A program made the position numbers and the translations under genes. Below, piece after piece: positions 23,501-44,593 of a stretch of DNA of 64,000 bases (position 1 is its first letter; every line of letters begins with the position of its first letter). This DNA is from an uncultured Gammaproteobacteria bacterium. GTDB taxonomy: Bacteria > Pseudomonadota > Gammaproteobacteria > UBA4575. The stretch lies in assembly GCA_951812785.1 (NCBI GenBank), contig OX638335.1:1443653-1507652 (forward strand), read 5' to 3'. The notes below the pieces were generated by a model that worked only from the letters and a program-made list of their open reading frames with translations, did not search any database and was not told where the DNA came from.

Positions 23501-26500
23501 TGTACAGCAACTTTCTAAGCTGCCTGTGCGGCAGTAAACGGGCAACTTAGCAACACGTAACACAGTGCAAGTTTCTAAGCTGCCTGTGCGGCAGTAAACT
23601 GGCCAAGAATCGACAACCATCATCTTGATGTTTTCTAAGCTGCCTGTGCGGCAGTAAACAAACAGAAATCAATTTTGAGAAAAATCGCTGATTTCTAAGC
23701 TGCCTGTGCGGCAGTAAACCAAAATTGATGGGAAGTCTAGACCTTCTTGAATTTCTAAGCTGCCTGTGCGGCAGTAAACCGCCTTGTTTTGACATCATCC
23801 AATCGATGATATTTCTAAGCTGCCTGTGCGGCAGTAAACTACCCGGCTCACATCTTGGATCTTTTAGATCGTTTCTAAGCTGCCTGTGCGGCAGTAAACT
23901 CGGAAATACTCAACAAAATGAACAACTTACATTTCTAAGCTGCCTGTGCGGCAGTAAACAGCGAATGCTTCAGACCAGTCAGTATTCGGCTTTTCTAAGC
24001 TGCCTGTGCGGCAGTAAACTGATGCTGTGTTCAAACCCAGTTAGCAAGCATTTTCTAAGCTGCCTGTGCGGCAGTAAACTAAAATTCCCTGTTACTCCAA
24101 ATCCTTTGACTTTTCTAAGCTGCCTGTGCGGCAGTAAACGCATGGACACATAATCAGTCTTATGAGTGTTATTTCTAAGCTGCCTGTGCGGCAGTAAACA
24201 TGCTAGGTTACAACGACCAGAATATTTAGGCTTTCTAAGCTGCCTGTGCGGCAGTAAACCTCTTGCAATACGTTGATCGTCAGTTTCCACCTTTCTAAGC
24301 TGCCTGTGCGGCAGTAAACTGTAACTCTTCAATTTCGCATAATTGATTCATTTTCTAAGCTGCCTGTGCGGCAGTAAACTAAAATTCCCTGTTACTCCAA
24401 ATCCTTTGACTTTTCTAAGCTGCCTGTGCGGCAGTAAACTCTGTCTGATTCGATCAATCCCGAAATCCACATTTCTAAGCTGCCTGTGCGGCAGTAAACA
24501 TAGTCGTTTAGCGAGAGGAGCGATTTGGGGATTTCTAAGCTGCCTGTGCGGCAGTAAACCTAGATATGTGGGTCGCCAAGCTCTGCCATCTTTTCTAAGC
24601 TGCCTGTGCGGCAGTAAACTATCGCAATACAAACTACTCACTACGGATCTTTTTCTAAGCTGCCTGTGCGGCAGTAAACTGAAACTGCCTGTAACGCCAA
24701 AACCTTTGACGTTTCTAAGCTGCCTGTGCGGCAGTAAACAGCAATCGGCGGAGTAGTCTCGACAGTCCTTGTTTCTAAGCTGCCTGTGCGGCAGTAAACT
24801 TGATGTTGCAACTGGATCTGCATTTAATCACTTTCTAAGCTGCCTGTGCGGCAGTAAACGCGCTAACAAATAGCGCTGGGATTTTTTGATCGTTTCTAAG
24901 CTGCCTGTGCGGCAGTAAACTATGATTTAGATCTCACACATGCTGAAAGTATTTTCTAAGCTGCCTGTGCGGCAGTAAACGGCAAATGCGAGTGACCAGG
25001 ATGTGTTTGGTTTTTCTAAGCTGCCTGTGCGGCAGTAAACCGAGTGCTATCAGATCAAGTCGATAAAAATCATTTCTAAGCTGCCTGTGCGGCAGTAAAC
25101 AACCCTGGCTATCCTAACGTTTTCGCTCGTGCTTTCTAAGCTGCCTGTGCGGCAGTAAACTTTCCCTTTGTAATATGTCCAATGCCGCTTCGTTTCTAAG
25201 CTGCCTGTGCGGCAGTAAACATGAATATAGGAGAGCTCAATCATCAATTGCTTTTCTAAGCTGCCTGTGCGGCAGTAAACCAGTTAATGCACGGCCGCCA
25301 GCTTCAACGTAATTTCTAAGCTGCCTGTGCGGCAGTAAACAATCAATTTTGAGGAGTATTGCGCATGAACGCTTTCTAAGCTGCCTGTGCGGCAGTAAAC
25401 CAGATGATCCTGCATTAACGATCTACGCGTTATTTCTAAGCTGCCTGTGCGGCAGTAAACTGCCACCATCTTTTGACTTTAGATGCTGTGCGTTTCTAAG
25501 CTGCCTGTGCGGCAGTAAACGGCTTCTTCTCTGACAAATTGACTTGCCAGGGTTTCTAAGCTGCCTGTGCGGCAGTAAACAGTGAGCATGGTCATATAAT
25601 ATCACTCATGTCTTTCTAAGCTGCCTGTGCGGCAGTAAACGTGGTGCAGTGGCGGATGAGGTTGAGTAAGTATTTCTAAGCTGCCTGTGCGGCAGTAAAC
25701 AGCCCGGACAGTCCGGCCCATCTCCGACAACCTTTCTAAGCTGCCTGTGCGGCAGTAAACATTCTGCTCCTAAATAATATCTGATTTTTGTTTTTCTAAG
25801 CTGCCTGTGCGGCAGTAAACATGATCGATGCGCAGTTAGCAAGACTGCGCGCTTTCTAAGCTGCCTGTGCGGCAGTAAACTACATATAGGTGAAATCAAT
25901 TCACATTCCCTCTTTCTAAGCTGCCTGTGCGGCAGTAAACTGTCTCATGTTGTACTGCAAGATTTCTGGCGCTTTCTAAGCTGCCTGTGCGGCAGTAAAC
26001 TTCGTGCTCGTCGTCTTGTCAGCAAATCAACTTTTCTAAGCTGCCTGTGCGGCAGTAAACGTTGTTGATCGTCGCTCTTGGATGCGACGATCTTTCTAAG
26101 CTGCCTGTGCGGCAGTAAACGAAGGTCTTGCAATTGATATATGCACGCTCTCTTTCTAAGCTGCCTGTGCGGCAGTAAACGCAGCACTGCTACTGGTGCG
26201 AGATAACTAAGTTTTCTAAGCTGCCTGTGCGGCAGTAAACTTTTTATCTCAAGCGCCGATGCTGCGCGGGCATTTCTAAGCTGCCTGTGCGGCAGTAAAC
26301 TAAGCTGTAAGACGAGGAAATAATTATGTCATTTTCTAAGCTGCCTGTGCGGCAGTAAACGAATATTCCTTCGGAACGTGTCACCGCATTTATTTCTAAG
26401 CTGCCTGTGCGGCAGTAAACGTGCTGTGACAGCATTAACAATTAACAATAATTTTCTAAGCTGCCTGTGCGGCAGTAAACTTTTTATCTCAAGCGCCGAT

Positions 26501-29500
26501 GCTGCGCGGGCATTTCTAAGCTGCCTGTGCGGCAGTAAACTAAGCTGTAAGACGAGGAAATAATTATGTCATTTTCTAAGCTGCCTGTGCGGCAGTAAAC
26601 GAATATTCCTTCGGAACGTGTCACCGCATTTATTTCTAAGCTGCCTGTGCGGCAGTAAACGTGCTGTGACAGCATTAACAATTAACAATAATTTTCTAAG
26701 CTGCCTGTGCGGCAGTAAACTAAATTTAGCAATGAGAATTGCAGCACTTGTTTTTCTAAGCTGCCTGTGCGGCAGTAAACGACAATTTGTCGAGCAAGCG
26801 TATGAAGAAATCTTTCTAAGCTGCCTGTGCGGCAGTAAACTCATTGCGCCTGCAACTGCGATTGCAATTGCATTTCTAAGCTGCCTGTGCGGCAGTAAAC
26901 AGCAGCCAGAAATGTCAGGGATTGCGTTATTTTTTCTAAGCTGCCTGTGCGGCAGTAAACCAAATGGCAATGTTGGTAAAATGTTCGGTCATTTTCTAAG
27001 CTGCCTGTGCGGCAGTAAACTTTGAAAAACTCAGGTATTAAAGCAAAAAATTTTTCTAAGCTGCCTGTGCGGCAGTAAACCGATCGAGGCGGTGGTAGAG
27101 ATGAAACAGGAGTTTCTAAGCTGCCTGTGCGGCAGTAAACGGACTAATGAGACCAGCAGCTACTAATTCGCTTTTCTAAGCTGCCTGTGCGGCAGTAAAC
27201 TTGCAAAGTGGTTTACTGCTGCACAGTTAGACTTTCTAAGCTGCCTGTGCGGCAGTAAACATAACAACACAAGAAGTAATGAAATTAGTAGTTTTCTAAG
27301 CTGCCTGTGCGGCAGTAAACTTGAAGTCAAATTTACATTGATGCCGGAAAGCTTTCTAAGCTGCCTGTGCGGCAGTAAACTGAAATTTCCGGTAACGCCG
27401 AAGCCTTTGACGTTTCTAAGCTGCCTGTGCGGCAGTAAACATATAATTCTGACATTATTTTTTACCTCGTCTTTTCTAAGCTGCCTGTGCGGCAGTAAAC
27501 GCACGCTTTCAATTCATAAACAGACAATGCACTTTCTAAGCTGCCTGTGCGGCAGTAAACCAACAGACAGTCAGACAGTCGCAGATCAATATTTTCTAAG
27601 CTGCCTGTGCGGCAGTAAACGTACGTCTTTTTTACACAAACTATTATCAACGTTTCTAAGCTGCCTGTGCGGCAGTAAACTCGACTTCCATTGTTTGCAT
27701 TCGAATTTTGTCTTTCTAAGCTGCCTGTGCGGCAGTAAACGCCGAGCGGTAACGATACTGCCGGACCCCTCTTTTCTAAGCTGCCTGTGCGGCAGTAAAC
27801 ATAAAATTAATTACATGCGCAAACACTATAATTTTCTAAGCTGCCTGTGCGGCAGTAAACACACGCTTTCGATTCATAAACAGACAATGCATTTTCTAAG
27901 CTGCCTGTGCGGCAGTAAACATAAAATTAATTACATGCGCAAACACTATAATTTTCTAAGCTGCCTGTGCGGCAGTAAACTTTTTGGTTAGCACCAAGAG
28001 CCCGCGCACGCGTTTCTAAGCTGCCTGTGCGGCAGTAAACATGTTGTCATTGATGAAAATACACATGTTTTTTTTCTAAGCTGCCTGTGCGGCAGTAAAC
28101 AAACACTCGCGACTATCGCGGCTCCGCCAACATTTCTAAGCTGCCTGTGCGGCAGTAAACGAACAAAATTAGGTATCAAAGGCTTGCTAGAATTTCTAAG
28201 CTGCCTGTGCGGCAGTAAACTCGATTTTGATGTTGCGAAGTTGCCGCCTCTTTTTCTAAGCTGCCTGTGCGGCAGTAAACCTCCGACTGATGGCGGCATG
28301 CCAAGATAATCTTTTCTAAGCTGCCTGTGCGGCAGTAAACTGTCGCGATACTAGTGATTCTAGAACGTAGATTTTCTAAGCTGCCTGTGCGGCAGTAAAC
28401 TGTCGCGATACTAGTGATTCTAGAACGTAGATTTTCTAAGCTGCCTGTGCGGCAGTAAACAGGTAATCTTCCTGCATTATTGCCATGGATTCTTTCTAAG
28501 CTGCCTGTGCGGCAGTAAACGCAACTGGTACAAATAACCACAAATATTGAATTTTCTAAGCTGCCTGTGCGGCAGTAAACTGAAATTGGTGCAGGAGTTG
28601 GGCGAAGAGATGTTTCTAAGCTGCCTGTGCGGCAGTAAACGCAACTGGTACAAATAACCACAAATATTGAGTTTTCTAAGCTGCCTGTGCGGCAGTAAAC
28701 ATACTACAGATAACAAAAATTAATAAGCAACTTTTCTAAGCTGCCTGTGCGGCAGTAAACCGTGTGTTTTTTTGTTTTGTTGTGACTGATTTTTTCTAAG
28801 CTGCCTGTGCGGCAGTAAACGGAACTGCAGCATATCGGACAACAACCAATTCTTTCTAAGCTGCCTGTGCGGCAGTAAACCGGCACAACTGACAACGGAC
28901 TTGAGCTTGTGTTTTCTAAGCTGCCTGTGCGGCAGTAAACGCTTATTACCCTGGCCCGCGGGTAGATCTTCGTTTCTAAGCTGCCTGTGCGGCAGTAAAC
29001 TATCAAATGCAGAATCAGTATCGCCGCCGAGATTTCTAAGCTGCCTGTGCGGCAGTAAACATGTTGCGATTACTAATGTTGCATCGCAACAGTTTCTAAG
29101 CTGCCTGTGCGGCAGTAAACTGCTCTTCGTTCTCTGTCTTTTCGTTCTTCTGTTTCTAAGCTGCCTGTGCGGCAGTAAACTTTCTTGACGCATTTCTACA
29201 ACAGCTTCAACCTTTCTAAGCTGCCTGTGCGGCAGTAAACATGAAATTAGTGGTGGAATTAGGAGAAGAAATTTTCTAAGCTGCCTGTGCGGCAGTAAAC
29301 GCAATTAGTACAAATAACCACAGATATAACATTTTCTAAGCTGCCTGTGCGGCAGTAAACCAGGAAGGGATTTTTTTGACCAGCCCGTTGGCTTTCTAAG
29401 CTGCCTGTGCGGCAGTAAACTGAGTTGGGGAGCAATCGGCGGCGCTATAGGTTTTCTAAGCTGCCTGTGCGGCAGTAAACGTAACTTAGATTTTGTAGTT

Positions 29501-32500
29501 CAAAAACGAGGCTTTCTAAGCTGCCTGTGCGGCAGTAAACACACGCTTTCAGTACATAAACAAACGATGCACTTTCTAAGCTGCCTGTGCGGCAGTAAAC
29601 TTTTAGAAGGATGTGGATTATGTGTTTTAATCTTTCTAAGCTGCCTGTGCGGCAGTAAACGCACAAAATTAGGTATTGCTGGTCTATTAGAATTTCTAAG
29701 CTGCCTGTGCGGCAGTAAACTATTCGAGATTCAGGTGTTTCTTTTGACCTGATTTCTAAGCTGCCTGTGCGGCAGTAAACGACGCGCGTTAACTGCGCAA
29801 GAAGAATTGGTCTTTCTAAGCTGCCTGTGCGGCAGTAAACTTGTCATCGCGCTGCGCAAAGCGCGAGTGGTTTTTCTAAGCTGCCTGTGCGGCAGTAAAC
29901 GTCGTTCGAGTGCTTCAGCACCAGCAACACCCTTTCTAAGCTGCCTGTGCGGCAGTAAACACAATGTCAATAATCTCTGTACGACAATTAACTTTCTAAG
30001 CTGCCTGTGCGGCAGTAAACTGAAATTAGTGGTAGAATTAGGTGAAGAACTGTTTCTAAGCTGCCTGTGCGGCAGTAAACTCTGTCTGATTCGATCAATT
30101 CCGAAGTCCACATTTCTAAGCTGCCTGTGCGGCAGTAAACTCTGTCTGATTCGATCAATTCCGAAGTCCACATTTCTAAGCTGCCTGTGCGGCAGTAAAC
30201 TCTGTCTGATTCGATCAATTCCGAAGTCCACATTTCTAAGCTGCCTGTGCGGCAGTAAACACAGTGTGCATCTCATAACTAAGCAAGACACTTTTCTAAG
30301 CTGCCTGTGCGGCAGTAAACATAGTCGTTTAGCGAGAGGAGTAATTTGGGGATTTCTAAGCTGCCTGTGCGGCAGTAAACAGATGCTCAAAAATATGCAA
30401 CTTAGTAAGTTATTTCTAAGCTGCCTGTGCGGCAGTAAACGCGGTACTGCTGCTGTACGCGTGTAATCAACTTTTCTAAGCTGCCTGTGCGGCAGTAAAC
30501 ATTCAGCCTATCAACACATTACAACAGCAATCTTTCTAAGCTGCCTGTGCGGCAGTAAACGGACTTTACCGCGCGGACGAAAGCGATAGCGCCTTTCTAA
30601 GCTGCCTGTGCGGCAGTAAACTACCACAATGTGACCTTCATACTAACGGGGCATTTCTAAGCTGCCTGTGCGGCAGTAAACAAGATTTACATTAGCATTA
30701 CCAACGATCTGTTTTTCTAAGCTGCCTGTGCGGCAGTAAACCAAATGATCCTGTTACTCCGAAGCCCTTGACTTTTCTAAGCTGCCTGTGCGGCAGTAAA
30801 CGAAATCTAGATTTCGTAGTTCAAAGACGCGGATTTCTAAGCTGCCTGTGCGGCAGTAAACGTTACTGGTTAAGACTCTTTCAACAGATTGTTTTTCTAA
30901 GCTGCCTGTGCGGCAGTAAACGCCCCGAAAGTGGTCGATAACGACAAAAGTGCTTTCTAAGCTGCCTGTGCGGCAGTAAACGTCTATTACGTACCTAGAC
31001 TTGCCCCGAAAGTTTTCTAAGCTGCCTGTGCGGCAGTAAACTCAATACAAACAGAAAACGAATGAAACCAAAGTTTCTAAGCTGCCTGTGCGGCAGTAAA
31101 CGAATCTGCTTGGTTGCGTACGAGACGCGCTGATTTCTAAGCTGCCTGTGCGGCAGTAAACTCCCTGCGCGATTTCGTTGCCTGATTGATCCTTTTCTAA
31201 GCTGCCTGTGCGGCAGTAAACTAATGTTTGTCGTTTTGCTTGCGTCATACTGCTTTCTAAGCTGCCTGTGCGGCAGTAAACTCCGCGCAAAGATTTTCAC
31301 GTCGTGCCGCGCGTTTCTAAGCTGCCTGTGCGGCAGTAAACATTTTGAAAATGTCAAAAAAGGTGATTTGGGCTTTCTAAGCTGCCTGTGCGGCAGTAAA
31401 CCAATACCGCGCTCTGTATTCAAACTGGATCATTTTCTAAGCTGCCTGTGCGGCAGTAAACATAGCTAAACTTGGTAATGTAAATGAAGCTCATTTCTAA
31501 GCTGCCTGTGCGGCAGTAAACTTAGATGGTCAGTCGAAGACGCAAAAGCGGCTTTTCTAAGCTGCCTGTGCGGCAGTAAACGTGTCAGAATATATGGAAA
31601 AATTTGGCCGCTTTTTCTAAGCTGCCTGTGCGGCAGTAAACCTAGCAAGCCTTTAATACCTAACTTCGTCCGATTTCTAAGCTGCCTGTGCGGCAGTAAA
31701 CATATCACGAAGCAGCATTGGACATATTGGTAATTTCTAAGCTGCCTGTGCGGCAGTAAACTTTTAATGGCATTTAAAGATTCATTCTTGTCATTTCTAA
31801 GCTGCCTGTGCGGCAGTAAACACAATTAGTAAGAATAACCACAAATATAGAGTTTTCTAAGCTGCCTGTGCGGCAGTAAACTGGCAAGTCTATATGTAGA
31901 AGAAGAAGCGAAATTTCTAAGCTGCCTGTGCGGCAGTAAACTTAGTCAGTACAAACTACTTACGACCGATCTTTTTCTAAGCTGCCTGTGCGGCAGTAAA
32001 CATTACACAATCACGATTATGCAACTGTAGAGATTTCTAAGCTGCCTGTGCGGCAGTAAACTTTCTATAACAGCTTCAACTGAAGCAGTGTCATTTCTAA
32101 GCTGCCTGTGCGGCAGTAAACGCTATAGAACTAGAACAAGAAGAATTAGAATTTTTCTAAGCTGCCTGTGCGGCAGTAAACCAACTAGAGAGTGATACTT
32201 AAAAAATTAGGGTTTTCTAAGCTGCCTGTGCGGCAGTAAACTTTGTTATTGTCGCTTTCTGATGCGACTGGATTTTCTAAGCTGCCTGTGCGGCAGTAAA
32301 CATATCATCAATTATTTACAGTTAGGCACAGATTTTCTAAGCTGCCTGTGCGGCAGTAAACGTAACGAGACTGCTGGACCGCGCTGCGCCCAGTTTCTAA
32401 GCTGCCTGTGCGGCAGTAAACCATAGCACAGCACTAATACGGTGCACGCCGATTTTCTAAGCTGCCTGTGCGGCAGTAAACGAAATCTCGATTTCGTAGT

Positions 32501-34822
32501 TCAGAAGCGCGGCTTTCTAAGCTGCCTGTGCGGCAGTAAACTTGCAAAGTGGTTCACAGCAGCGCAGTTAGATTTTCTAAGCTGCCTGTGCGGCAGTAAA
32601 CAGCAACCGGAAATGTCAGGGATCGCGTTATTCTTTCTAAGCTGCCTGTGCGGCAGTAAACGAGTCGACAGCGCCAGATTTTGGTGCTGTCGATTTCTAA
32701 GCTGCCTGTGCGGCAGTAAACATGAAAGATTGGAAAGCAGCGGTACGAACCTTTTCTAAGCTGCCTGTGCGGCAGTAAACGGATTTCAAATCCCAGATAC
32801 GGCGGCAGTCGATTTCTAAGCTGCCTGTGCGGCAGTAAACCTATGATTATCGGATAAATTTTCATCATTATATTTCTAAGCTGCCTGTGCGGCAGTAAAC
32901 GGCATTTCAATGGGCTCGGAAGGCATGAAATATTTCTAAGCTGCCTGTGCGGCAGTAAACGTAACGAGACTGCTGGACCGCGCTGCGCCCAGTTTCTAAG
33001 CTGCCTGTGCGGCAGTAAACCATAGCACAGCACTAATACGGTGCACGCCGATTTTCTAAGCTGCCTGTGCGGCAGTAAACTGATGCCTGAGAGCGGGGCT
33101 GTTGTACCAAGTTTTCTAAGCTGCCTGTGCGGCAGTAAACACGTTCTCCCGCATACCCGTCAACTTCACCACTTTCTAAGCTGCCTGTGCGGCAGTAAAC
33201 TAAGAAAGAAGCAATGAGTGAGGCGGCTCGCCTTTCTAAGCTGCCTGTGCGGCAGTAAACTCGTGCCGATTAGTTGCACAGAAGTACTGCCTTTTCTAAG
33301 CTGCCTGTGCGGCAGTAAACAACTACTTAGATATGATAAGCGATTAGATAAATTTCTAAGCTGCCTGTGCGGCAGTAAACCCCGTCAAGTTATTATAACT
33401 GGTCCGCGCGGCTTTCTAAGCTGCCTGTGCGGCAGTAAACACTATGAGAGACAAAAAGAATTTGCGCAGAGCTTTTCTAAGCTGCCTGTGCGGCAGTAAA
33501 CGCCCGTCAAAACTTTGTGCAATATAAGGCATCTTTCTAAGCTGCCTGTGCGGCAGTAAACCGAAAAAAACAGATACACGTCTGTATTATATGTTTCTAA
33601 GCTGCCTGTGCGGCAGTAAACGTATCGTGCGCCGTATCTGGCGCGAGCCTCTTTTTCTAAGCTGCCTGTGCGGCAGTAAACTGAGCGCATGTTTACCGCC
33701 ACCTAAGTATTCTTTTCTAAGCTGCCTGTGCGGCAGTAAACGTGCAGTAGTGCCAAGCGGCAACGAAACTGCATTTCTAAGCTGCCTGTGCGGCAGTAAA
33801 CTGAGTGCGTGTTTGCCTCCGCCAAGGTACTCATTTCTAAGCTGCCTGTGCGGCAGTAAACCCAAAACTGGATGCATGAGCGGAGCAGCCATGTTTCTAA
33901 GCTGCCTGTGCGGCAGTAAACCAGTTAGTAAAAATGGTATGACATTCGGTTGCTTTCTAAGCTGCCTGTGCGGCAGTAAACACGCGGTCGAATGTCCAAG
34001 TATAGAGTCGCCATTTCTAAGCTGCCTGTGCGGCAGTAAACTTCTGCGTTTTGCCGCATCGATGACATCTGCGTTTCTAAGCTGCCTGTGCGGCAGTAAA
34101 CGCTTTGTTGAGCCTTTTTTTCGGCCAGCACCTTTTCTAAGCTGCCTGTGCGGCAGTAAACGGCTCTCAAATACGAGATAACACATCAATTGATTTCTAA
34201 GCTGCCTGTGCGGCAGTAAACCTAGCAACTTGCTTGCAAGTTGCTAGCCTAGAGTTTCTAAGCTGCCTGTGCGGCAGTAAACATGGCTAGTAATAAGATA
34301 CGAGCTCGTCGACTTTTCTAAGCTGCCTGTGCGGCAGTAAACCGGAGATAATTATGAGTTGGGGTAGTGCAATATTTCTAAGCTGCCTGTGCGGCAGTAA
34401 ACTGTGGATAGACGGCTATTTTTTAGCGACCGATTTTCTAAGCTGCCTGTGCGGCAGTAAACATGGTTTAGAGCAAGTTACAGATCGCGACTTATTTCTA
34501 AGCTGCCTGTGCGGCAGTAAACTCTGTCTGATTCGATCGATGCCAAAATCCACATTTCTAAGCTGCCTGTGCGGCAGTAAACTTAGCGAGAGGAGCAATT
34601 TGGGGCGGATTGGCTTTCTAAGCTGCCTGTGCGGCAGTAAACAAACGCAGAATGTCAGCGCGACAATACAAGCATTTCTAAGCTGCCTGTGCGGCAGTAA
34701 ACACCAGGGAGGATTGACCAAAAGATCGAGACAATTTCTAAGCTGCCTGTGCGGCAGTAAACCTTAAACACTACTATTATAGTGTTTGCGCATATTTCTA
34801 AGCTGCCTGTGCGGCAGTAAAC
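20575..34822 (-). CRISPR. type I-F CRISPR array, ~238 repeats and 237 spacers, transcribed right to left
   Basis: 28-nt repeat (minus-strand reading GTTTACTGCCGCACAGGCAGCTTAGAAA) on a strict 60-nt period with mostly 32-nt spacers. The distal repeat at 20575-20602 carries one substitution. The leader-proximal repeat ends at 34822, next to cas6f. Confidence 0.98.
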
Positions 34823-34952: not shown

Positions 34953-35504
34953 TCAAAACCAGGGGACGGTGGCAATTTTGGATAATCCAAATAAGTCAAA
35001 TTTTCCCGTGATGGGCTGACTGGTTAAATCACTAAATTTAATGTAGCGCCTGTGTTTATGTTTGTTCGATCCACTGATGAGTTCGATATAGGGATTCTCT
35101 AATCCTTGGGTAAACATCTTTGCACGGTATTGTTTAACCTCTTCCTCTGTGATTGAACCACGTTTTATCAATCGATTCAGTTTGGCTTGGCTCATGTTGG
35201 CTTGCACTCGGCTAACGGTGCGGTATTGAACGTTATCCGGTACAGGTTGAATCGCTGACACCTGACAGTAACCGCTCATGCCGCCAACCCAGTTTTTATC
35301 CTGTAATTGAGTCAATGCAGTTTGTGTTCCATGTATGCGCAACTGATCGCCCAACGTCTTTTGATAGGCTGGAAAGCTCACGCCAATGTCGGTGCTGTTC
35401 AGGTCACACAGGGCTTTGTGGAATTTGGCGTACAACGAATCCATAAGTATCCTGGATCGGAATTCCGGGTCGGGTAATAACGTGATATTCAAGTAGTTAT
35501 CCAT
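34953..35504 (-). CDS. cas6f: Cas6f (Csy4) crRNA endoribonuclease
   Basis: 183 aa; MDNYLNITLLPDPEF...GLSKIATVPWF matches the Cas6f N- and C-terminal signatures. Last gene of the operon, next to the leader. Confidence 0.93.
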   Translation of the reverse strand: MDNYLNITLLPDPEFRSRILMDSLYAKFHKALCDLNSTDIGVSFPAYQKTLGDQLRIHGTQTALTQLQDKNWVGGMSGYCQVSAIQPVPDNVQYRTVSRVQANMSQAKLNRLIKRGSITEEEVKQYRAKMFTQGLENPYIELISGSNKHKHRRYIKFSDLTSQPITGKFDLFGLSKIATVPWF

Positions 35505-35512
35505 ATATCTAC

Positions 35513-36538
35513 CTATTTATCACTTTCACCGAATACACCGCCACGTACCAATACCGCCATCACGTAATGTTCATCTTCCACGCGTTCCAATGCACCACCA
35601 CGCGCCCAATGATCAAAAAAGCTATAGAAGTCTTGTTTTTCTGCGGGTGTACGGAAGGCTTTACCCTGATTGGTCACTGCACCATAGGGTTCGATAGCGA
35701 TTGGGCCAACCGAAGCTTCCGGGTCAGCAAACTCTCCATACCAAGTATCAATGGTACGGATGGCATTACCTATTTTTTGCGAGTGCATGGCAGCAATATT
35801 ATTTACATGGTAAAGAATTTTGCTTTTCTCACCTTTACCTTTATCCAGCACGAGTTCTTCGCTGGGATAGACATCTTGTGCTTTACCCACTTTGGCATAG
35901 CAGGTGATATCGAGCATAAGAAAATCATCTTCACTGGCTAATGCTGTTGCAATGCGTTCTGCCAAGATAGTAACTTCCGCATCACTTGCTGACAGGTCAC
36001 GCGGATTAAACTCCAAAGCATTAAATTGCCAACTCTGCTCTGCACCCTGGTTTAAGGCGCTGACTTCGACCTGGATGTTTTCGGCTCCAAAGCGGTTGCG
36101 CCAAAGGAATCGTGCATTGGCGATGTTCAAGGCATAACGCTTTGCCAGTTCTCTCATACCCCGTGTTTGCAGATAGCCATTGACTGCTGCTTGGTAGCTT
36201 TGTTTGAATAAGGCATTGTTGCAGGCTGAAGGCTGTTGCAAGCCACCCAATACTTTTAAGGTAAAGTGTAATTTAAGCGTGTCTTGTTCTGTACCCAAAG
36301 CACAGGCATCTATCGTTTGTAAATTGGGTTTTTCAACTTCTGCGTTTAATTTTTGCGGGTCTTTTTTTATCGCCTCCTTTAGGCGGTTAGCGATCGTCCC
36401 CCGCACTGATTTCTCTTGCAGTTTCAGCGGTGTCACTTCATTTTTATTATCCCAACTTGTGCCATACATATAGCCATCACTGGGTACCAGTTTTTTTTCA
36501 AATGCGAGTACAGATGCAATATTGTCTTTCTTAGCCAT
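35513..36538 (-). CDS. cas7f: Cas7f (Csy3) Cascade backbone subunit
   Basis: 341 aa, in the conserved I-F gene order. Confidence 0.9.
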   Translation of the reverse strand: MAKKDNIASVLAFEKKLVPSDGYMYGTSWDNKNEVTPLKLQEKSVRGTIANRLKEAIKKDPQKLNAEVEKPNLQTIDACALGTEQDTLKLHFTLKVLGGLQQPSACNNALFKQSYQAAVNGYLQTRGMRELAKRYALNIANARFLWRNRFGAENIQVEVSALNQGAEQSWQFNALEFNPRDLSASDAEVTILAERIATALASEDDFLMLDITCYAKVGKAQDVYPSEELVLDKGKGEKSKILYHVNNIAAMHSQKIGNAIRTIDTWYGEFADPEASVGPIAIEPYGAVTNQGKAFRTPAEKQDFYSFFDHWARGGALERVEDEHYVMAVLVRGGVFGESDK

Positions 36539-36556
36539 AGCTATTCTCCTGATATG

Positions 36557-37489
36557 TTAAAAATCAAATTCACTTGACGGATCTTTTGCAACCGTATTAA
36601 GGGCTACACATTGGTAAAAGTTACTAGCCTTATCAACTTGATAGCACCACAACATGTCGCTTATTGATTCAAAGCGATGAGGCATTTTGAATTCACCTAA
36701 GGTCACCAGGCTTTCAGCGAAGCAATGTGGTTGATCTGGGTCACGTTGGTTTTTGGCTTGGCCTAATTCACTAATACCGTGGAAGCCTGTAGCAATGGGT
36801 ACAATCCAGCCTAGGGGCTTGTCAGTTTGGCTTTTGCGGCGTTTTTTCCATAACACGCCATCTTTTGTTTGTTCGCAACGATGATGAATTGCCACATAGT
36901 CAATTAACGCAGCCATAGCATCATCCTGGCCTTGCCCCATCGCTTCAATCATTAGGTCGCGGCGCTCAATCAGCACATAACCTGGCATAATTTTTCGCGT
37001 AAACCGACGTAAATCCTCTTCGTTGTTATCTTCAAGTACAAAAATAGCAGGTGGGCTAAAGCTTTGAATATCCCCACCCGCCATTTTTATTTTGCTGTTG
37101 AGTAAATGGCTTATTTGCGCTTTTATTGCATCTTCTTGCTCCTGGCTTATCCCCTGCAATTCCAGTAATAAAGACACCTCAAGATGGCAACGAGCTTCCT
37201 CAATAAACGATGAACGCGATCCGGTTTTATCTAAGGGGTTACCGGTACCTATAATGGATGACACAAAATCATTTGTTCCACGATAGGTTTGTAAGTTCAT
37301 TTGGTGGCTCACCACACCGGTTGCCGTCACCTTTACATCTATGCCACCCTCATTTAATTTACGTTGTAGGGCGTGAGTCGCCCCTAACCATGCGGTCATC
37401 GCGGGAAAGCCAATGGTAAAAGGGCTGGAGAGGGCATTAGCGTTATGAATGTGAAGATGTGGAATCAGCAGTATCTTTTTATAGCTCAT
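36557..37489 (-). CDS. cas5f: Cas5f (Csy2)
   Basis: 310 aa; overlaps cas8f stop as ATGA; I-F order. Confidence 0.88.
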   Translation of the reverse strand: MSYKKILLIPHLHIHNANALSSPFTIGFPAMTAWLGATHALQRKLNEGGIDVKVTATGVVSHQMNLQTYRGTNDFVSSIIGTGNPLDKTGSRSSFIEEARCHLEVSLLLELQGISQEQEDAIKAQISHLLNSKIKMAGGDIQSFSPPAIFVLEDNNEEDLRRFTRKIMPGYVLIERRDLMIEAMGQGQDDAMAALIDYVAIHHRCEQTKDGVLWKKRRKSQTDKPLGWIVPIATGFHGISELGQAKNQRDPDQPHCFAESLVTLGEFKMPHRFESISDMLWCYQVDKASNFYQCVALNTVAKDPSSEFDF

Positions 37490-38802
37490 CGTAACGCCTC
37501 CTTGTGTTTCACGACCTGCTTATGGATATGCTTAAATTCGCCGTCTGAAAATATAAAAGTTTTTTTGCCGAGCAATTTTTCATAACCATTAAAGATAAAT
37601 TTAGCGATGTCAGTGCATAGCATATCTAACCAGTCATTTTCATCTTCTCGTTGCGCTTCATTGGCCATACAGAGCCATATTTTTTGAGTAGGGTTTAACT
37701 GGCTAGTATCTGGGTTGTATTGCGCTTCGCTTACGCTTCTTACTCGCCACATTCTTTCAATAATTCGATCCATGATGGCCTGGTAATATTCATCGCGCGC
37801 ACTCCGGATATGCCTATTATTTTTGTGGTTAAGAAATATTAAGTCATGCAAGGCATAAAACAAATCTCTACATTGAAAATAACTGAACGATTGGCTAAAA
37901 AAGTCCACTGTTGGAAAGTGGATGTCACGCTTGATTAATTTGGGTGGCTCGCTCGGTAGCAGATGCACTTTGCCACCGTTTTGATTGTTCAAAACGCTAA
38001 TATTCTGCGGCTTGGTACCGCCATAACCCATCGTGGTTAAGTTGGCCAGTTGCTTATAACCCCCTATATACATTTCATTGTTCTTTTCACATTTCGCAAA
38101 GTCTCTTGCGCCCGCATCCGGACCTATATACATTTCATTGTTCTTTTCACAAGTTCTGGCAATTTTTGTTTCTTCAGAAAAACGGATGGTATCAATCCTT
38201 TTTCTCAGCTCGAATACTATGCCAGATGCAGACAGTATCGATAATTGGTGGTAGCCATTTTCTACAGGAAAGTAGACCTGTTTAATTTTGGAACTCGTTA
38301 TGCTATCAGCATCGCTATTCGTCATGGCTAAAAAGCCTTCTTTTAAAGTGCTGTATGACTCTGCTTTAATCTTGAGAAGTTGTTGTGCTAAATCAGAATC
38401 TTGCTCGATGTGGCTAAGTAAGGTTTGCCCATCTTGCATATTAAGCGTCAAAAATTTATAGACATCTAATGCGGCAGCATTGCCCAGTGCATCGGCCTCC
38501 ACAACAACGTTGCCACTGCGTAAATAGCCATCGTTGCTTGCTTGGCTATCGGCAATAATTGATGAGGCATAGCCATTCTTATTTTTACGTGAACTAGGAT
38601 GGCTGAAAGTACATGGATGCGTGGATATGGACATTTGCCCCGCTCGCTTGGCGGCATTTGGCAACCAATTTTCCAAACTAAATTGCTCGGAGCACTCCTG
38701 TTCCTTAGCCTGGATCATCGTTTCATCTGCACCAGCATGAAGATTTTTCTTTAACCAAGCCGCTTTACGCTTGTCAAAGAATTCAGCTATTACTTTCTCC
38801 AT
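37486..38802 (-). CDS. cas8f: Cas8f (Csy1) large subunit
   Basis: 438 aa, first gene of the csy operon. Contains an internal 29-bp perfect direct repeat (see findings). Confidence 0.88.
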   Translation of the reverse strand: MEKVIAEFFDKRKAAWLKKNLHAGADETMIQAKEQECSEQFSLENWLPNAAKRAGQMSISTHPCTFSHPSSRKNKNGYASSIIADSQASNDGYLRSGNVVVEADALGNAAALDVYKFLTLNMQDGQTLLSHIEQDSDLAQQLLKIKAESYSTLKEGFLAMTNSDADSITSSKIKQVYFPVENGYHQLSILSASGIVFELRKRIDTIRFSEETKIARTCEKNNEMYIGPDAGARDFAKCEKNNEMYIGGYKQLANLTTMGYGGTKPQNISVLNNQNGGKVHLLPSEPPKLIKRDIHFPTVDFFSQSFSYFQCRDLFYALHDLIFLNHKNNRHIRSARDEYYQAIMDRIIERMWRVRSVSEAQYNPDTSQLNPTQKIWLCMANEAQREDENDWLDMLCTDIAKFIFNGYEKLLGKKTFIFSDGEFKHIHKQVVKHKEALR

Positions 38803-39042: not shown

Positions 39043-39077
39043 CCATTTAACTATTGGTATAAAATACTCCAACTACT
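39043..39077 (+). promoter_or_regulatory. CC PAM plus seed-matched target site of the adjacent psi-spacer; overlaps an extended -10 (TGgTATAAA, 39055-39063) that faces the mini-CRISPR
   Basis: Positions 1-14 of the site match psi-spacer 39096-39128 except at positions 6 and 12; 22/33 overall; CC immediately 5'. Confidence 0.55.
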
Positions 39078-39156
39078 GAAAAAGCAGCTTAGAAAATTTA
39101 CCTATTCGTGGTTATTTATCCATTTACTGCTTACTGCCGCATAGGCAGCTTGAACC
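39068..39156 (+). ncRNA. degenerate mini-CRISPR (psiR1-psiS-psiR2), candidate crRNA-like regulator of the CreR/CreA type
   Basis: psiR1 at 39068-39095 matches 19/28 but ends in a perfect GCAGCTTAGAAA 5' handle. 33-nt psi-spacer at 39096-39128. psiR2 at 39129-39156 matches 22/28 and keeps the intact hairpin CTGCCGCATAGGCAG. Orientation is opposite to the cas genes. Confidence 0.6.
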
Positions 39157-39182: not shown

Positions 39183-42100
39183 TCACACTCTCACCAATCC
39201 GAATTGGTCGTTATATTTATATTTAGCGCTTTCATCGTGCCAAAAACTTAACTCGCCATAGCGCAACGATGCCCTACGCATACTCATATCTTGTGCGTCT
39301 GCCATACTTGCTATTTCTGCTTCAAAGTCGCGTTGTAGCCATAGCCGTTTGCTTGCTTCTGTAGCCAACTGCACACGATCAATACCAAGCGGTAGTTCAC
39401 GTGGCACAGGAAAGCCTTTTTCGTTTTTTTCACAAAAGGTACATGCCTGCTTATTTTCATCAAAGGCCAAAAACACTTTCAAGCTCGGCGGAGATTTTCT
39501 AAACGACACTATGTGTTGCGGGTATGCCGTCAAAAACCAGGCTTCACGCAAATAGCCTTGTAGCTGAGCAGGGCCGTTACCGTCTCGTCCATAGTTAGCC
39601 AATAACTTGCAAATAACATAATGTTCTAAATCTGCCAATTGTTTTTTAGGCTGTAGATCTTTTGATTTTTGGATACGTGCAATAGCATCTACACGCTGTA
39701 ATAAGGCATCCGCATCCAGCAAGTCATTCAAGTTGTGGCTTGCCAACCTGATTTGGTCTTCAAAACCTGGCCTGTTAAATACTTTACCGTTTTCAAGGTG
39801 TTTATCGCGTACCCCCCGCCAGTTGTATTGCAGCAAACTGATGTTAGGCACTTCCACGCCGATTTTACGATGACGACGCACACGTCCTGCCAATTGGATA
39901 ATTGAACGATACGAAGATGGTTCCACAACTGCCCAGTCAAAATCGTGGTCGCGACCAACCTCTTCTACGGGAGTTGCCACTAACACAAACAGCACATGTT
40001 TAACCTGTGGTTCGGTTCGCTTTATATGCTCAAGGTGTTGACGAATAACAGTGTTTAGAAAAGCTTTGGGTTGTTCATCTATGTCTTCTTTACGTTTTAA
40101 TACTTGGCCTAGGTGCTGTTCTTGTTTATGGCGCATCAGCAAGACTTGCTGACTGTGGTACGGCATCGTTCTTATCTGAACGTCTGCTGGCAGATCCATC
40201 TTTAGCAAGTAACGGGCTAAGGCTATGCAGGGTTGAATATTCGCCATGCGCACCACGCCAAACGACACCGCCAATTGGCTTTGTTGATCAACCATGTGAT
40301 GGTGCTGATGTTTAGTGAGAACACTATCAGTAATGATTTTAAAATAGGCTTGTTGTTTACTCGCTATAACGTTTTCATCGTTAGGGCTATGGGTAAAATC
40401 AGCAAAGATTTGTTCACAAGGAGTAATGTCAGCTTTGCGCTTAACCGGTTGTTTGACTAATTTAGCAACGCGTTTTTCGACAAATTTCACGTGTTCACTG
40501 CGGTAAGCAGGTATTGCATCCCGCACTTGCAAGCCATGATTACTTGCGACGACTGTGTTAAATTCATCTATCCATGCACAGCCCACCGTCGCACTGGCAT
40601 CACGGCTTTTACAGTAGATTAGCCATCCATCTCGGTACGCTTTGAAGTAGCCTTCAGCTAAATCAGGCGTAATGGTTGCCGAGGAGATCATCACCTTTCG
40701 ACCTAACATACCTGCTAAGTGAATGAGGCGTCCAATAGCGACTAAATCCTCACCGGTAAAATCGTCAACTTCATCAATTACTAGATCAGAAGACATTAAC
40801 CGTAGAGTAGGCAAAATATAGCGCCCCCCACGCTTAGTCTCAGTTGCCGCCATAAGATGGTCGATGGTGCAGGCTAATACCGGCGCATAGAGGAATTTTT
40901 TATCACGTTGTTCACGCAGTACGGTAGTCATACCTTCTTCAGGAATAGCGCAATCGTAATCGACTTCTTCATCCAACAATGTTTCTTGTGACTCTGAACC
41001 ACTTGCTTCAAAACTCAGTTCTTCTGTCTCAGTTTTTGCTTGCTGATGTAACGCCATGACGGCACGCGAGCCGATCAGTACCGCCAGTTCGGTTGCATCC
41101 AAACCCACTCGCTCACGGTATTCATCACCTGTTTGTAATGTGAGGGTACGTAAGCCCAGAGCCAAAATAAAACGCAGGCTATTCCCATCATTTGATACAG
41201 CCTGCATCACTTTGGCATTGGCAAAGGTTTTACCGCAGCCCGTACTTGCCATATTCACAGCGAAAAAACCTTGCTTTTGCGTATTATTCTTGCGCCAATG
41301 TTTAATGTTATCTACGGCTTTATCTTGCCAACGAAATTCGCCAGGGCTTAGTTTTTTCAATGCTGTGATGTCTTGCGCTATGGGTGGTTCAGCTTCAAAT
41401 GCCGGTAGCAAATGTGCAGTGTTTAAACCATGCCTTGCAACACCAACCAAATGCTCATCCAGCTTTTGCTTTAAAGCTTTAGTTTTAAAATCGGTATTGG
41501 CAAATAAGCCGAGCTTGTCTTGCCATTTTTTATCGGCATTTTGTGATGAGTAATAATGATCACCCAGCATTACGCATAACCGCGCATAATTTAATACTGA
41601 TCGGTAACTGCCATCATTGAGTGATTGCAATACCTGCGATTCACAAGCTAGTAAGCGTTGTGACCATTTTTTAATTTGCTTTAACCAAGGTTGCGAAGCG
41701 CTGAGTAGCCCATTAGGAAAATTAAAACATTGTTCAACCCGCTGCTTATATTCAGCCTGATCATAGTTGTTTTCGTAACCCCACTGCTGAGTAACCAGGC
41801 ATAAAACATTATCAATGTTAGGACAGCATTCAGCCCGCATATCCACATCTTTATTTAGCGGTAAACGATGATGGGAGACAACCAGCCAAGCCACTAGTTT
41901 AGCTATCGGTGGTAAATTTTTTAGCGGATTAGTCTGCTGTTTACTGGCAATGGCTTTTATCTTGGCTTCATCAATGTCGCCTTTTGCTAAGGTCTCAAGC
42001 CAACCACTATCGTTTACATTGTTTGTATCGCCTTGATGCATTTGAATAAGTGCATTCAGCAATAAACACGAAATCCATTCATGCCGAATAGGGTCACCTT

Positions 42101-42545
42101 TAAAGCCCATTTTATTCTTAGGCTTCAATTTTTCCTGGAACAGTTGGCTGGCTTTACCCCAATCATGCAAAAGCGCGGCAATAGCCACCAAGGCTTTAAT
42201 TAAGGGTAAATACGCCCAGTCATTTTCAATATGAGAATTTAATAAATTTCGCCTCGTCGTGTTAACGGGCACGGCTCCTTCGCGATCAAATTTCTGACGA
42301 TTACCCACCACCCAAACCAACTCACTACGCGCACGGCTGCGTATCCAATGACAGCTTACCGCAGTGTTTTTACTGGCAGTTTTTCTAAGTAATTTTTTTA
42401 CTGCCAGTAAGCCTTCCTGGGTGATAATTGTTTGCCAGGTGTTATCGCCAATGCGGTTGGCGAAGGCATCAAGCACACGGCGACTGCGGGCGTGGGCTTT
42501 TTTTTCGCATTGACTAACAAAGGTAACCATCATGACCAAAGACAC
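39183..42545 (-). CDS. cas3: Cas2-Cas3 fusion (Cas3f) helicase-nuclease
   Basis: 1120 aa with an N-terminal Cas2 domain (..VSQCEKKAHARSRRVLDAFA..HWIRSRARSELVWVVGN..), HD nuclease and SF2 helicase. The ORF-track start is GTG at 42545; ATG codons 4-5 codons downstream are more likely the real start. Confidence 0.93.
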   Translation of the reverse strand: MSLVMMVTFVSQCEKKAHARSRRVLDAFANRIGDNTWQTIITQEGLLAVKKLLRKTASKNTAVSCHWIRSRARSELVWVVGNRQKFDREGAVPVNTTRRNLLNSHIENDWAYLPLIKALVAIAALLHDWGKASQLFQEKLKPKNKMGFKGDPIRHEWISCLLLNALIQMHQGDTNNVNDSGWLETLAKGDIDEAKIKAIASKQQTNPLKNLPPIAKLVAWLVVSHHRLPLNKDVDMRAECCPNIDNVLCLVTQQWGYENNYDQAEYKQRVEQCFNFPNGLLSASQPWLKQIKKWSQRLLACESQVLQSLNDGSYRSVLNYARLCVMLGDHYYSSQNADKKWQDKLGLFANTDFKTKALKQKLDEHLVGVARHGLNTAHLLPAFEAEPPIAQDITALKKLSPGEFRWQDKAVDNIKHWRKNNTQKQGFFAVNMASTGCGKTFANAKVMQAVSNDGNSLRFILALGLRTLTLQTGDEYRERVGLDATELAVLIGSRAVMALHQQAKTETEELSFEASGSESQETLLDEEVDYDCAIPEEGMTTVLREQRDKKFLYAPVLACTIDHLMAATETKRGGRYILPTLRLMSSDLVIDEVDDFTGEDLVAIGRLIHLAGMLGRKVMISSATITPDLAEGYFKAYRDGWLIYCKSRDASATVGCAWIDEFNTVVASNHGLQVRDAIPAYRSEHVKFVEKRVAKLVKQPVKRKADITPCEQIFADFTHSPNDENVIASKQQAYFKIITDSVLTKHQHHHMVDQQSQLAVSFGVVRMANIQPCIALARYLLKMDLPADVQIRTMPYHSQQVLLMRHKQEQHLGQVLKRKEDIDEQPKAFLNTVIRQHLEHIKRTEPQVKHVLFVLVATPVEEVGRDHDFDWAVVEPSSYRSIIQLAGRVRRHRKIGVEVPNISLLQYNWRGVRDKHLENGKVFNRPGFEDQIRLASHNLNDLLDADALLQRVDAIARIQKSKDLQPKKQLADLEHYVICKLLANYGRDGNGPAQLQGYLREAWFLTAYPQHIVSFRKSPPSLKVFLAFDENKQACTFCEKNEKGFPVPRELPLGIDRVQLATEASKRLWLQRDFEAEIASMADAQDMSMRRASLRYGELSFWHDESAKYKYNDQFGLVRV

Positions 42546-42699
42546 CCGTTACCCAGATAGGTTAGAATCCGGTTGTCGTCTGGCCAAGAATCGACAACCA
42601 TCATCTTGATGTTTACAGCACAAACGAAATGCTGCATCCAAAGGGATTTGCGAGTGACATTGCTTACCACACAATGTTTCAGCTCACCCCTTAGGCGAC

Positions 42700-42728
42700 A
42701 TATTAGAAGCAATCTAAAAATATTTCAA
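42700..42728 (-). promoter_or_regulatory. candidate sigma70 promoter for cas2-3 (TTGAAA-17-TAATAT)
   Basis: -35 TTGAAA (complement of 42723-42728), 17-nt spacer, -10 TAATAT (complement of 42700-42705). It is separated by one nucleotide from the CC PAM of the psi-spacer target. Confidence 0.45.
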
Positions 42729-42730
42729 TC

Positions 42731-42752
42731 CCTATAAAGAGTTATTTTAGCA
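42731..42752 (+). promoter_or_regulatory. CC PAM plus seed-matched target of psi-spacer 42800-42819
   Basis: CC at 42731-42732; the next 10 nt (tataaagagt) match the psi-spacer perfectly; 15/20 overall. Confidence 0.55.
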
Positions 42753-42771
42753 AATAATCTGCTATACTTTG

Positions 42772-42847
42772 AATATCTGCCGTATAGGCAGCTTAGAAAT
42801 ATAAAGAGTCGTTTTACACGTTCACTGCCGCACAGGCAGCTTATTGA
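42772..42847 (+). ncRNA. degenerate mini-CRISPR with a 20-nt psi-spacer, second candidate CreR/CreA-like crRNA-like gene
   Basis: psiR1' at 42772-42799 (22/28) keeps a perfect hairpin plus handle CTGCCGTATAGGCAGCTTAGAAA. psi-spacer tataaagagtcgttttacac at 42800-42819. psiR2' at 42820-42847 is GTTCACTGCCGCACAGGCAG with an intact hairpin, then degenerates to cttattga. Sits in a 345-bp gap between cas1 and cas2-3, in the opposite orientation. Confidence 0.6.
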
Positions 42848-42890
42848 TTCGGCAGAGATTATGGTTGTATGCATATTTGGCCTGCTATAG

Positions 42891-43829
42891 CTATTCGCCA
42901 AGACTAACTTGCTTCACCTGTTCAAACATAAAATCCAGTGCTTTGTGCTGGGTAAAGTTTTGCAGACATTGTTGGCGAAACTCCTGTTCGCTGGAGTTTT
43001 CCTTAGCACAGATAAAAGCCCAGGGCAGAATCAATGTGTCCTTTACCAAATCGGCAATATCAAAGACCAATGCACCACGACGAGTTTTACCATGCATCAC
43101 GGCAAACCCATGTGGAATGCCCAGTACCCAAAGGGTGGTTGCGGCTAAACCATAAGCCAGGTAATTGCCATGATTGAGAAAGGCATTGGCAGTATCTTCG
43201 GCTTCGTGGGTGCGGGTGAAGTCGCCATACTCGGTGCGGGTAGCGGCCAGTTTATACAACCATTTGGTGAGCTGGGCTTCGGTGTTGAGTAGTTCACTGA
43301 CTCTGGTGCAATGTTTTATTCTGTTGATGGCGTTATCTAATGCGCTTTTTATTGATGGGTCGTCGCTTGAAAAGCCTTCGCTCTTGAGATCGCGGTCACG
43401 TGACCAAACTTGTTGTAAAAATTCAATTCTTGCCTGCTGGAATTGTTTAGCAGCTTGCAAGCGCTTACTGTCGTCAAACCAGAATTGCATCCACCCTTGC
43501 ATATATTCGGTGGGACGATATTCGCTTTGTGGTGTCAGCCATTCAATTTCATTAGCCATAAGTAATGGTGTGCCACCTCCACCACAAAAACCAACTAATA
43601 CACCAGCTTGTGCGAGCATACGCATAGCTGCTTGAGTAATAGATGTGCCTGTTCCCAATAACAAGCAGGTGGTATTGGCAATCGGGATATTCCAATACTG
43701 GTTTTCTTCTTTGGCTTCAGTAAGGTACAAAACACGGCCATCTTTTTGCATGACGCGACATTTTTCAAGGTAATAAATGTTCGCTCGCTTAGAATGGAGG
43801 ATGGCTTTCAGGTCAGTCAGTTGATCCAC
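42891..43829 (-). CDS. cas1: Cas1 integrase (I-F type)
   Basis: 312 aa, MDQLTDLKAILHSKRANIYYLEKCRV...; first gene of the cas operon. Confidence 0.93.
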   Translation of the reverse strand: MDQLTDLKAILHSKRANIYYLEKCRVMQKDGRVLYLTEAKEENQYWNIPIANTTCLLLGTGTSITQAAMRMLAQAGVLVGFCGGGGTPLLMANEIEWLTPQSEYRPTEYMQGWMQFWFDDSKRLQAAKQFQQARIEFLQQVWSRDRDLKSEGFSSDDPSIKSALDNAINRIKHCTRVSELLNTEAQLTKWLYKLAATRTEYGDFTRTHEAEDTANAFLNHGNYLAYGLAATTLWVLGIPHGFAVMHGKTRRGALVFDIADLVKDTLILPWAFICAKENSSEQEFRQQCLQNFTQHKALDFMFEQVKQVSLGE

Positions 43830-44052: not shown

Positions 44053-44140
44053 TTGAATGATCGCGCAGGCGATGAAAACTGCAGAAACGCGCAAGCAAAA
44101 TCTTATTGAAAATTGAATGATCGCGCAGGCGATGAAAACT
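44053..44140 (+). repeat. orphan two-repeat CRISPR-like unit with a non-I-F repeat
   Basis: Identical 28-nt repeats TTGAATGATCGCGCAGGCGATGAAAACT at 44053-44080 and 44113-44140 flank a 32-nt spacer at 44081-44112. The repeat carries a 5-bp stem ATCGC/GCGAT with a 4-nt loop and a GAAAACT tail. Confidence 0.5.
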
Positions 44141-44509: not shown

Positions 44510-44593
44510 ATTATTTGCCTCTCACAAGCCCTGAAATAAAATCAGTAAACTTTGTTGGCGGGTTGTGGCAATTTAATGTCAGCTAAGTATCAA

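Follow-up and report, generated by a model that had tools for sequence, protein, structure and literature searches.

The type I-F locus and the insertion between cas1 and cas2-3

The stretch of DNA analysed here, hereafter the window, is 64 kb long and carries a type I-F CRISPR-Cas locus, the relevant features of which are collected in Table 1. The six proteins Cas1f, Cas2-3, Csy1, Csy2, Csy3 and Cas6f all score above the NCBIfam cut-offs with full-length alignments. The start of cas2-3 was placed at the ATG at 42533 and not at the GTG at 42545, since the sequence MMVTF is conserved in all relatives and the HMM alignment begins there. The nearest Cas2-3 relative is 83% identical. A gap of 380 bp separates cas2-3 from csy1.

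Table 1. Positions in the window of the features discussed in the text
Feature	Position	Strand	Remarks
Type I-F CRISPR array	20575..34822	-	238 repeats (GTTTACTGCCGCACAGGCAGCTTAGAAA), 237 spacers
Consensus repeat downstream of sp187	23572..23599	-	first base G, as the base after the protospacer
Array spacer sp187	23600..23631	-	187th of 237 counted from the leader; crRNA-sense ACATCAAGATGATGGTTGTCGATTCTTGGCCA
Consensus repeat 5' of sp187 (transcript sense)	23632..23659	-	source of the 5' handle CUUAGAAA
csy1-csy2-csy3-cas6f	34953..38802	-	each full length
cas2-3 (type I-F Cas3f)	39183..42533	-	1116 aa from ATG 42533
uORF	42530..42604	-	24 codons, MMVVDSWPDDNRILTYLGNGCLWS and stop; start inside the protospacer; TGA overlaps the cas2-3 ATG (ATGA)
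Intergenic cassette between cas1 and cas2-3	42534..42890	-	357 bp; insertion relative to relatives
Hairpin	42571..42599	-	arms 42571-42578 / 42592-42599 (GGUUGUCG / CGACAACC in mRNA), 5' arm within the protospacer
Protospacer, 32/32 to sp187	42581..42612	-	cas2-3 leader, ~+81 to +112 relative to the predicted start of transcription
PAM position	42613..42614	-	AA on the minus (crRNA-sense) strand, not CC
Sigma-70-like promoter TTGAAA-N17-TAATAT	42700..42728	-	predicted driver of the cas2-3 leader; consensus match only
CC PAM and 20-nt mini-array target	42731..42752	+	positions 1-10 and 13-17 match (15/17)
Antisense regulatory mini-array	42772..42847	+	psiR1 AATATCTGCCGTATAGGCAGCTTAGAAA, 20-nt pseudo-spacer TATAAAGAGTCGTTTTACAC, psiR2 GTTCACTGCCGCACAGGCAGCTTATTGA; Rfam DR4 matches
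cas1 (Cas1f)	42891..43829	-	without the last ~6-7 residues present in relatives

The repeats of the array are 28 nt long, match Rfam RF01317 and are of the CRISPR-DR4 type, and 230 of the 237 spacers have a length of 32 nt. An A+T-rich leader adjoins cas6f (34823 to ~34950). The array is transcribed from right to left, as an earlier note on this sequence had proposed, since the degenerate repeats sit at its distal end, at 20.5 kb, with the leader at the cas6f end. If spacers are added in a polarised manner, about 186 of them are younger than sp187, the 187th from the leader. Several blocks of spacers are duplicated within the array (sp136-139 = sp140-143, sp77 = sp78 = sp79, sp30/31 = sp40/41, sp219 = sp220, and others), and several more are near-duplicates with 1-3 mismatches, which suggest repeated capture from variants of one target. 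Beyond the distal end lies a graveyard of insertion sequences (IS) and type I restriction-modification fragments (10300-20500), which reaches back to a cluster of tRNA genes (Trp, Thr, Gly and Tyr, 8537-10274). The restriction-modification fragments include an HsdS-like (12888-13703) and a ResIII (16023-16802) segment, and the last repeat is abutted by a split IS4-like transposase (DUF4372, 20084-20476, and DDE_Tnp_1, 19274-20074).

In most relatives, 15-40 bp separate cas1 from cas2-3, or the two genes overlap through an ATGA; in the remaining ones the junction holds unrelated cargo (Bro-N/KilA-N genes, VapBC or other ORFs). The 357-bp cassette is therefore an insertion, and no homologue of it was found in any relative examined. 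The junction is a recurrent site of cargo insertion in the clade (Bro-N/KilA-N, VapBC; L033, L034 and L038). The Cas1 protein of the window ends in FMFEQVKQVSLGE and lacks the DWxTxxx tail with which its relatives terminate (42891-42960), as if the insertion had replaced the 3' end of cas1; in the relative L038, a duplicated cas1 tail of 35 aa was kept after the VapBC insertion. On the other side of cas1, a WYL-domain regulator that is intact in relatives (284-330 aa, directly upstream of cas1) is broken here (44589-45427): the homology crosses an in-frame stop near 45077 and shifts frame near 44724. Possibly, regulation was rewired and mini-arrays took the place of the protein regulator; otherwise the break may be an error of the assembly.

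The cassette includes a mini-array in antisense orientation to the cas genes, whose pseudo-spacer (42800-42819) partially matches a CC-flanked target that abuts the -35 element of the TTGAAA-N17-TAATAT promoter facing cas2-3. The nuclease gene, besides the Cascade operon, would then be under crRNA-like control. This module is absent from all relatives examined. A second antisense mini-array occupies the gap between cas2-3 and csy1 (39043-39156) and consists of a handle (GCAGCTTAGAAA), a pseudo-spacer (39096-39127) and psiR2 (CTTACTGCCGCATAGGCAGCTTGAAC). Its target at 39045-39076 is likewise flanked by CC (39043-39076 with the PAM), and the mismatches are found exactly at positions 6 and 12. 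In the relatives L037-L039, this gap likewise holds an equivalent mini-array, with a pseudo-spacer of 20 nt. The targets resemble those of published I-F1 regulatory mini-arrays, and a comparable mini-array RNA repressed transcription while its unusual repeat and spacer features blocked cleavage (PMC10120712). Since both mini-arrays have CC beside their best seed-matched targets, 5'-CC was taken as the PAM of this system; no foreign protospacer was found for any of the array spacers tested. Upstream of cas1, at 44053-44139 on the minus strand, two identical 27-nt repeats (GTTTTCATCGCCTGCGCGATCATTCAA) are spaced at a 60-nt period, which is the I-F-like 28+32 geometry. They have a 5-bp stem at the positions of the I-F repeat stem, but agree with the array repeat at only 13 of 28 positions. 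The pair could be a diverged third mini-array, judging from this arrangement; no target for it was found.

The promoter predicted within the cassette would produce a leader of ~160 nt ahead of cas2-3. A 181-nt leader RNA folds better than its shuffled counterparts (z = -2.9), and the local hairpin has a free energy of -13.3 kcal/mol as RNA (z = -1.9). The leader contains a short uORF that opens with ATGATGGTT, the same 9-mer that starts cas2-3 (sites 42604 and 42533). Apart from these two starts and the copy in the array, the 9-mer was not found elsewhere in the window, and its duplication arose in only 46 of 20000 shuffled leaders (0.23%), which is significant. The next 62 nt of the leader have a collinear similarity to nucleotides ~71-106 of cas2-3 that was equalled in 12 of 1000 dinucleotide shuffles and in 3.7% of control segments. 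The last 71 nt of the leader may thus be a decayed and internally deleted copy of the cas2-3 5' end. The overlap between the uORF stop and the cas2-3 ATG mimics the translational coupling to cas1 or cargo genes in relatives.

Two other derivations of the leader were considered and rejected. The ATGA overlap and a DSW motif had given rise to the idea of a relic of the cas1 3' end, which yielded no DNA-profile match and a protein local score of 25, equal to the shuffle mean (225 of 500 shuffles were equal or better). A relic of a Bro-N/KilA-N cargo gene gave only tblastn E-values above 0.3. Rfam matches on the leader were confined to the two mini-array repeats.

A spacer identical to the cas2-3 leader

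The 32-mer TGGCCAAGAATCGACAACCATCATCTTGATGT has exactly two copies in the window, one as spacer sp187 in the array and one in the cas2-3 leader, between the predicted promoter and the ATG. No third site was found in the window at up to three mismatches, and none of 100 shuffles had any match. The 32/32 identity between an array spacer and the cas2-3 5' UTR that the earlier note had described was thus recovered exactly. The distance to the cas2-3 start had been given there as about 30 bp and is in fact 48 nt, counted from the ATG at 42533, while the spacing of about 120 bp to the mini-array target (42733-42752) holds, at 121 bp. The crRNA has the same sense as the cas2-3 mRNA, as had also been stated, and it can therefore pair only with the template strand of the DNA.

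Read in the crRNA sense, the array has CTTAGAAA followed by ACATC...GGCCA and GTTTAC, and the target has TGCTGTAA followed by ACATC...GGCCA and GACGAC. This alignment confirms the AA reported at the PAM position. These are also the last two bases of the 5' handle CUUAGAAA, and the G on the other side of the protospacer is repeat-like as well, so that the full identity between sp187 and its target is 35 nt and not 32. The chance of such repeat-identical flanks is about 0.02 (P(AA) = 0.097, P(G) = 0.21). No CC is found within slip distance of the protospacer in either orientation, and sp187 is thus neither a slipped nor a flipped canonical capture.

Both repeats that flank sp187 are of the consensus type and undecayed, and the cas genes are full length. 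Tolerance of the spacer can therefore not be ascribed to decay. The proposal that the missing PAM explains survival is judged correct: the target is flanked by AA, and the cas genes and repeats are intact. From the intact target, the intact cas genes and the approximately 186 newer spacers, we infer that there is no interference at 42581-42612. The 8-bp inverted repeat noted earlier across the protospacer is present, but its overlap is unremarkable, as perfect 8-bp repeats of this kind, with a loop of 3-20 nt, have a frequency here of one in 856 nt.

Only two other spacers, sp27 and sp2, match the non-array part of the window, including the cas region, over more than 14 nt. sp27 (33201-33232) is a second perfect 32/32 self-match, to 17569-17600 within a decayed IS3-family orfA that is followed by orfB remnants up to ~18500. 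At its target, GA occupies the PAM position and the 3' side carries GG, and this GG signature marks sp27 as a flipped canonical capture. The leader-proximal sp2 (34703-34734) matches 11937-11968 with three mismatches and AG at the PAM position. Its target is surrounded by transposase fragments, of the rve type (12062-12460, minus strand) and IS1595-like (11202-11360).

Origin of sp187

sp187 is probably a self-derived spacer that arose from a rare, PAM-independent capture of the cell's own cas2-3 leader and survived through its inert flank. According to this model, the Cas1-Cas2-3 integrase would have captured a 32-bp fragment of the cas2-3 leader and placed it next to the array leader, as the newest spacer of that time. 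With AA at its PAM position, as in the flank of the array copy, the target would not let Cas8f license R-loop formation; Cas2-3 would not be recruited and the cell would survive. The spacer would then have been carried passively during the addition of about 186 newer ones. The trigger may have been either naive capture at a cas-locus hotspot or priming by the mini-array RNA. The exact match, the orientation, the flanks, the array position and the intact repeats and cas genes all support self-capture, as does the failure to find another source in viral contigs, phages, plasmids and metagenomes, and we infer that the direction of transfer was from chromosome to array. The repeat-identical flank would be the most inert possible, since the same flank protects every spacer in the array, and it would presumably be inert for priming as well.

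In the native I-F system of Pectobacterium, chromosomal spacers are acquired constantly, with the CRISPR-Cas locus among the hotspots. The surviving chromosomal protospacers have a canonical PAM in 66-70% of cases, as opposed to 93-95% for plasmid protospacers, and the wild type tolerates a perfect self-match through a non-consensus PAM (PMC5059440, PMC6990116). Self-targeting spacers make up 0.4% of all spacers (PMC6990116), so that about one would be expected among 237. Against self-capture, 97.8% of I-F captures have the consensus PAM, and shifts by 1-2 nt or flips account for most of the rest (PMC4678832); in another data set, +/-1 slips made up 24 of 28 non-consensus cases (PMC4117759). 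Priming is efficient in Pectobacterium from a perfect match whose PAM deviates by a single base (TG; PMC5059440, PMC6990116), and a perfect self-match might therefore be costly. Purely random capture does not account for a protospacer 121 bp from the mini-array target.

This proximity is suggestive and would be explained by a primed event, which is a sub-case of self-capture that differs in the trigger alone. The mini-array guide, bound at its CC-flanked partial target, would occasionally recruit Cas1-Cas2-3 to take up spacers from the DNA around it, and only the rare PAM-less product would have survived. The protospacer does lie in cis near a partially matched site, as in primed adaptation, 121 bp away on the PAM-proximal side, although the priming ability of the guide is putative; random capture from the 2.16-Mb genome would be unlikely to fall so close unless the locus is a hotspot. 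A Pectobacterium spacer with six mismatches was found to prime from the chromosome (PMC5059440). However, the pseudo-spacer of the guide is 20 nt long with 15 of the first 17 positions matching, and the comparable I-F1 mini-array guide repressed without cleavage (PMC10120712). More than 90% of primed events use the consensus PAM, and the flank of sp187's target is AA, although survivorship would remove CC-flanked self-spacers. No other spacer of the 237 maps to the cas region, but CC-flanked products would be lethal and hence invisible. sp187 is old, with no sign of ongoing events, and the CRISPR-Cas locus is a capture hotspot in a native I-F system that may or may not have a mini-array (PMC5059440). 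Priming is therefore considered an unlikely trigger.

It is similarly doubtful that the spacer came from a foreign element carrying a homologous, CC-flanked cassette, or that it is older than the arrival of the 357-bp cassette. The cassette is absent from all relatives and sits in a junction that is a hotspot for cargo in the clade, sp187 is old, and the other two self-matches in the window, sp27 and sp2, are directed against remnants of mobile elements (IS). Regulatory mini-arrays resembling those of the host have been reported in phages (PMC10120712; bioRxiv 2024.10.29.618823). However, the 32-mer of sp187, its 26-mer core and two 19-20-mer cores were all absent from viral contigs and metagenomes. 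Phages had no match to the 167-nt leader or to the whole cassette, and plasmid matches to them were limited to the repeat-like part. The one hit of the searches for a foreign source fell by chance inside a 531-aa ORF. Overall, searches with cassette, leader and protospacer in viral contigs, phages, plasmids and metagenomes returned nothing beyond generic I-F repeats, and the GG/CC-flanked copy on a foreign element that the earlier note had envisaged did not turn up in any of these collections. Nor did the neighbouring spacers point to a common foreign element, as sp186 and sp188 had no viral match. A foreign source would also demand 32/32 identity combined with a difference at both PAM bases. 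As for the possibility raised before that the stretch is a recent insertion and the spacer predates it, the insertion (42534-42890) stands, but there is no evidence for its recent date or for a greater age of the spacer.

A canonical capture from a CC-flanked site, followed by mutation of the PAM from CC to AA with the protospacer left intact, would fit the very high PAM fidelity of I-F capture (PMC4678832), and PAM mutation is documented as a route to tolerance in Pectobacterium (PMC6990116). It has a small probability, as it requires two substitutions in the PAM and none in 32 bp, and the usual routes are spacer loss, cas mutation or target deletion (PMC6990116). More improbable still is a functional crRNA, in which Cascade loaded with sp187 would bind the transcribed, transiently unwound leader without a PAM and act as a non-cleaving roadblock or decoy that ties the output of Cas2-3 to the abundance of crRNA or Cascade. 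Such a role is less likely than a priming scar. The site is well placed for it, between the predicted promoter and the cas2-3 ATG and across the uORF start and one arm of the hairpin in a leader with a fold z of -2.9, and the match is still perfect after ~186 added spacers. Against this, there is no PAM, whereas known crRNA-like regulators use a consensus PAM and partial pairing (PMC10120712), and no homologous leader was found for comparison. The arrangement does not recur: of the 983 spacers screened in 24 related I-F loci, none has a match of more than 15 nt in the cas neighbourhood of its locus, and the decoy or regulatory role suggested earlier thus gains no comparative support.

The least credible origin, with scarcely any probability, is that the leader copy is itself a relic of a CRISPR unit (an array or mini-array in either orientation) or an ectopic spacer integration. 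The earlier note had suggested an inverted array unit from the "gtttac" in the downstream flank. On the plus strand, this GTTTAC, which starts where the match ends, opens a 28-mer in which 13 of 28 bases equal the repeat, but 1.2% of background positions are as good and, with ~28 alignments tried, the similarity is not significant. In the crRNA sense the target flanks have only 6/28 and 10/28 identity to the repeat, and they are not direct repeats of each other, which would have indicated a neo-repeat. A 32/32 spacer beside repeats that have decayed to random sequence is also implausible, and the suggestion was rejected.

Relationship to known systems and significance

A close likeness to the proposed self-capture of the cas2-3 leader is found in the I-F system of Pectobacterium atrosepticum, in which a CRISPR2 spacer matches traG in the island HAI2 (Vercoe 2013, Dy 2013, Staals 2016). 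The two cases share a perfect self-match that is tolerated alongside active cas genes, in Pectobacterium because the PAM is non-consensus. However, the traG target has a one-base PAM difference (TG), lies in a mobile island and demonstrably primes self-acquisition, while in sp187 both PAM bases differ (AA, as in the repeat) and the target is the cas2-3 leader itself. Stern et al. (2010), as summarised in PMC6990116, divided non-effective self-targeting into classes with no PAM, extended repeat pairing, mutated repeats or missing cas genes. sp187 has full-length identity to a chromosomal site outside the array, and its target lacks the consensus PAM and has identity reaching into the repeat. 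It therefore resembles the "no PAM" and "extended identity with repeat" classes, and one in 237 equals the reported 0.4%. In contrast to the other classes, the repeats and cas genes are intact, and the target is part of the CRISPR-cas locus itself and not of a housekeeping gene or a prophage.

crRNA-like mini-arrays (CreR/CreA; I-F1, Shmakov et al. 2023) also have a guide that matches DNA upstream of a cas gene that is left uncleaved. These are standalone units with degenerate repeats and a short or partial spacer that recognise a promoter target with a consensus CC PAM. sp187, on the other hand, is an array spacer between consensus repeats that matches its target over 32 nt, in the absence of a PAM and at ~80-110 nt from the start of the leader. 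Of four hallmarks of such regulators (a standalone unit, partial seed-centred pairing, a consensus PAM and conservation among related loci), it has none. A missing consensus PAM at the expected place is shared with the slipped and flipped acquisition errors of I-F systems (Richter 2014, Vorontsova 2015, Staals 2016). While sp27 is a textbook flip, sp187 lacks a CC within slip distance and so falls into the rarest class, termed "other".

For type I-E systems, Levy et al. are said to have described in 2015 a hotspot of chromosomal spacer capture close to the array and in the cas locus. The source of sp187 likewise lies in the cas operon, with 7.8 kb between it and the end of the array that adjoins the leader, which resembles the cas-locus hotspot in I-F (Staals 2016); its use in the organism of the window would be deduced from one spacer.

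sp187 thus most likely derives from self DNA by accident and does no harm, and as such it adds another tolerated, PAM-less case to a class of self-targeting spacers that is already known; about one is expected per array of this size. Only the place of its target is unusual: it lies in the leader that precedes the nuclease gene of the same system, at 121 bp from a mini-array target. That location is a curiosity that motivates a survey and no discovery in itself. The identity of the target flank with the repeat suggests a rule for which self-spacers persist, namely those that resemble the array itself to Cascade. If self-spacers were found to cluster near mini-array targets, it would follow that crRNA-guided autoregulation can leak into priming, and this leak, if true, would be a measurable cost to weigh against the benefit of such regulators. 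If sp187 is indeed a priming scar, crRNA-like autoregulators would carry a hidden cost in autoimmunity.
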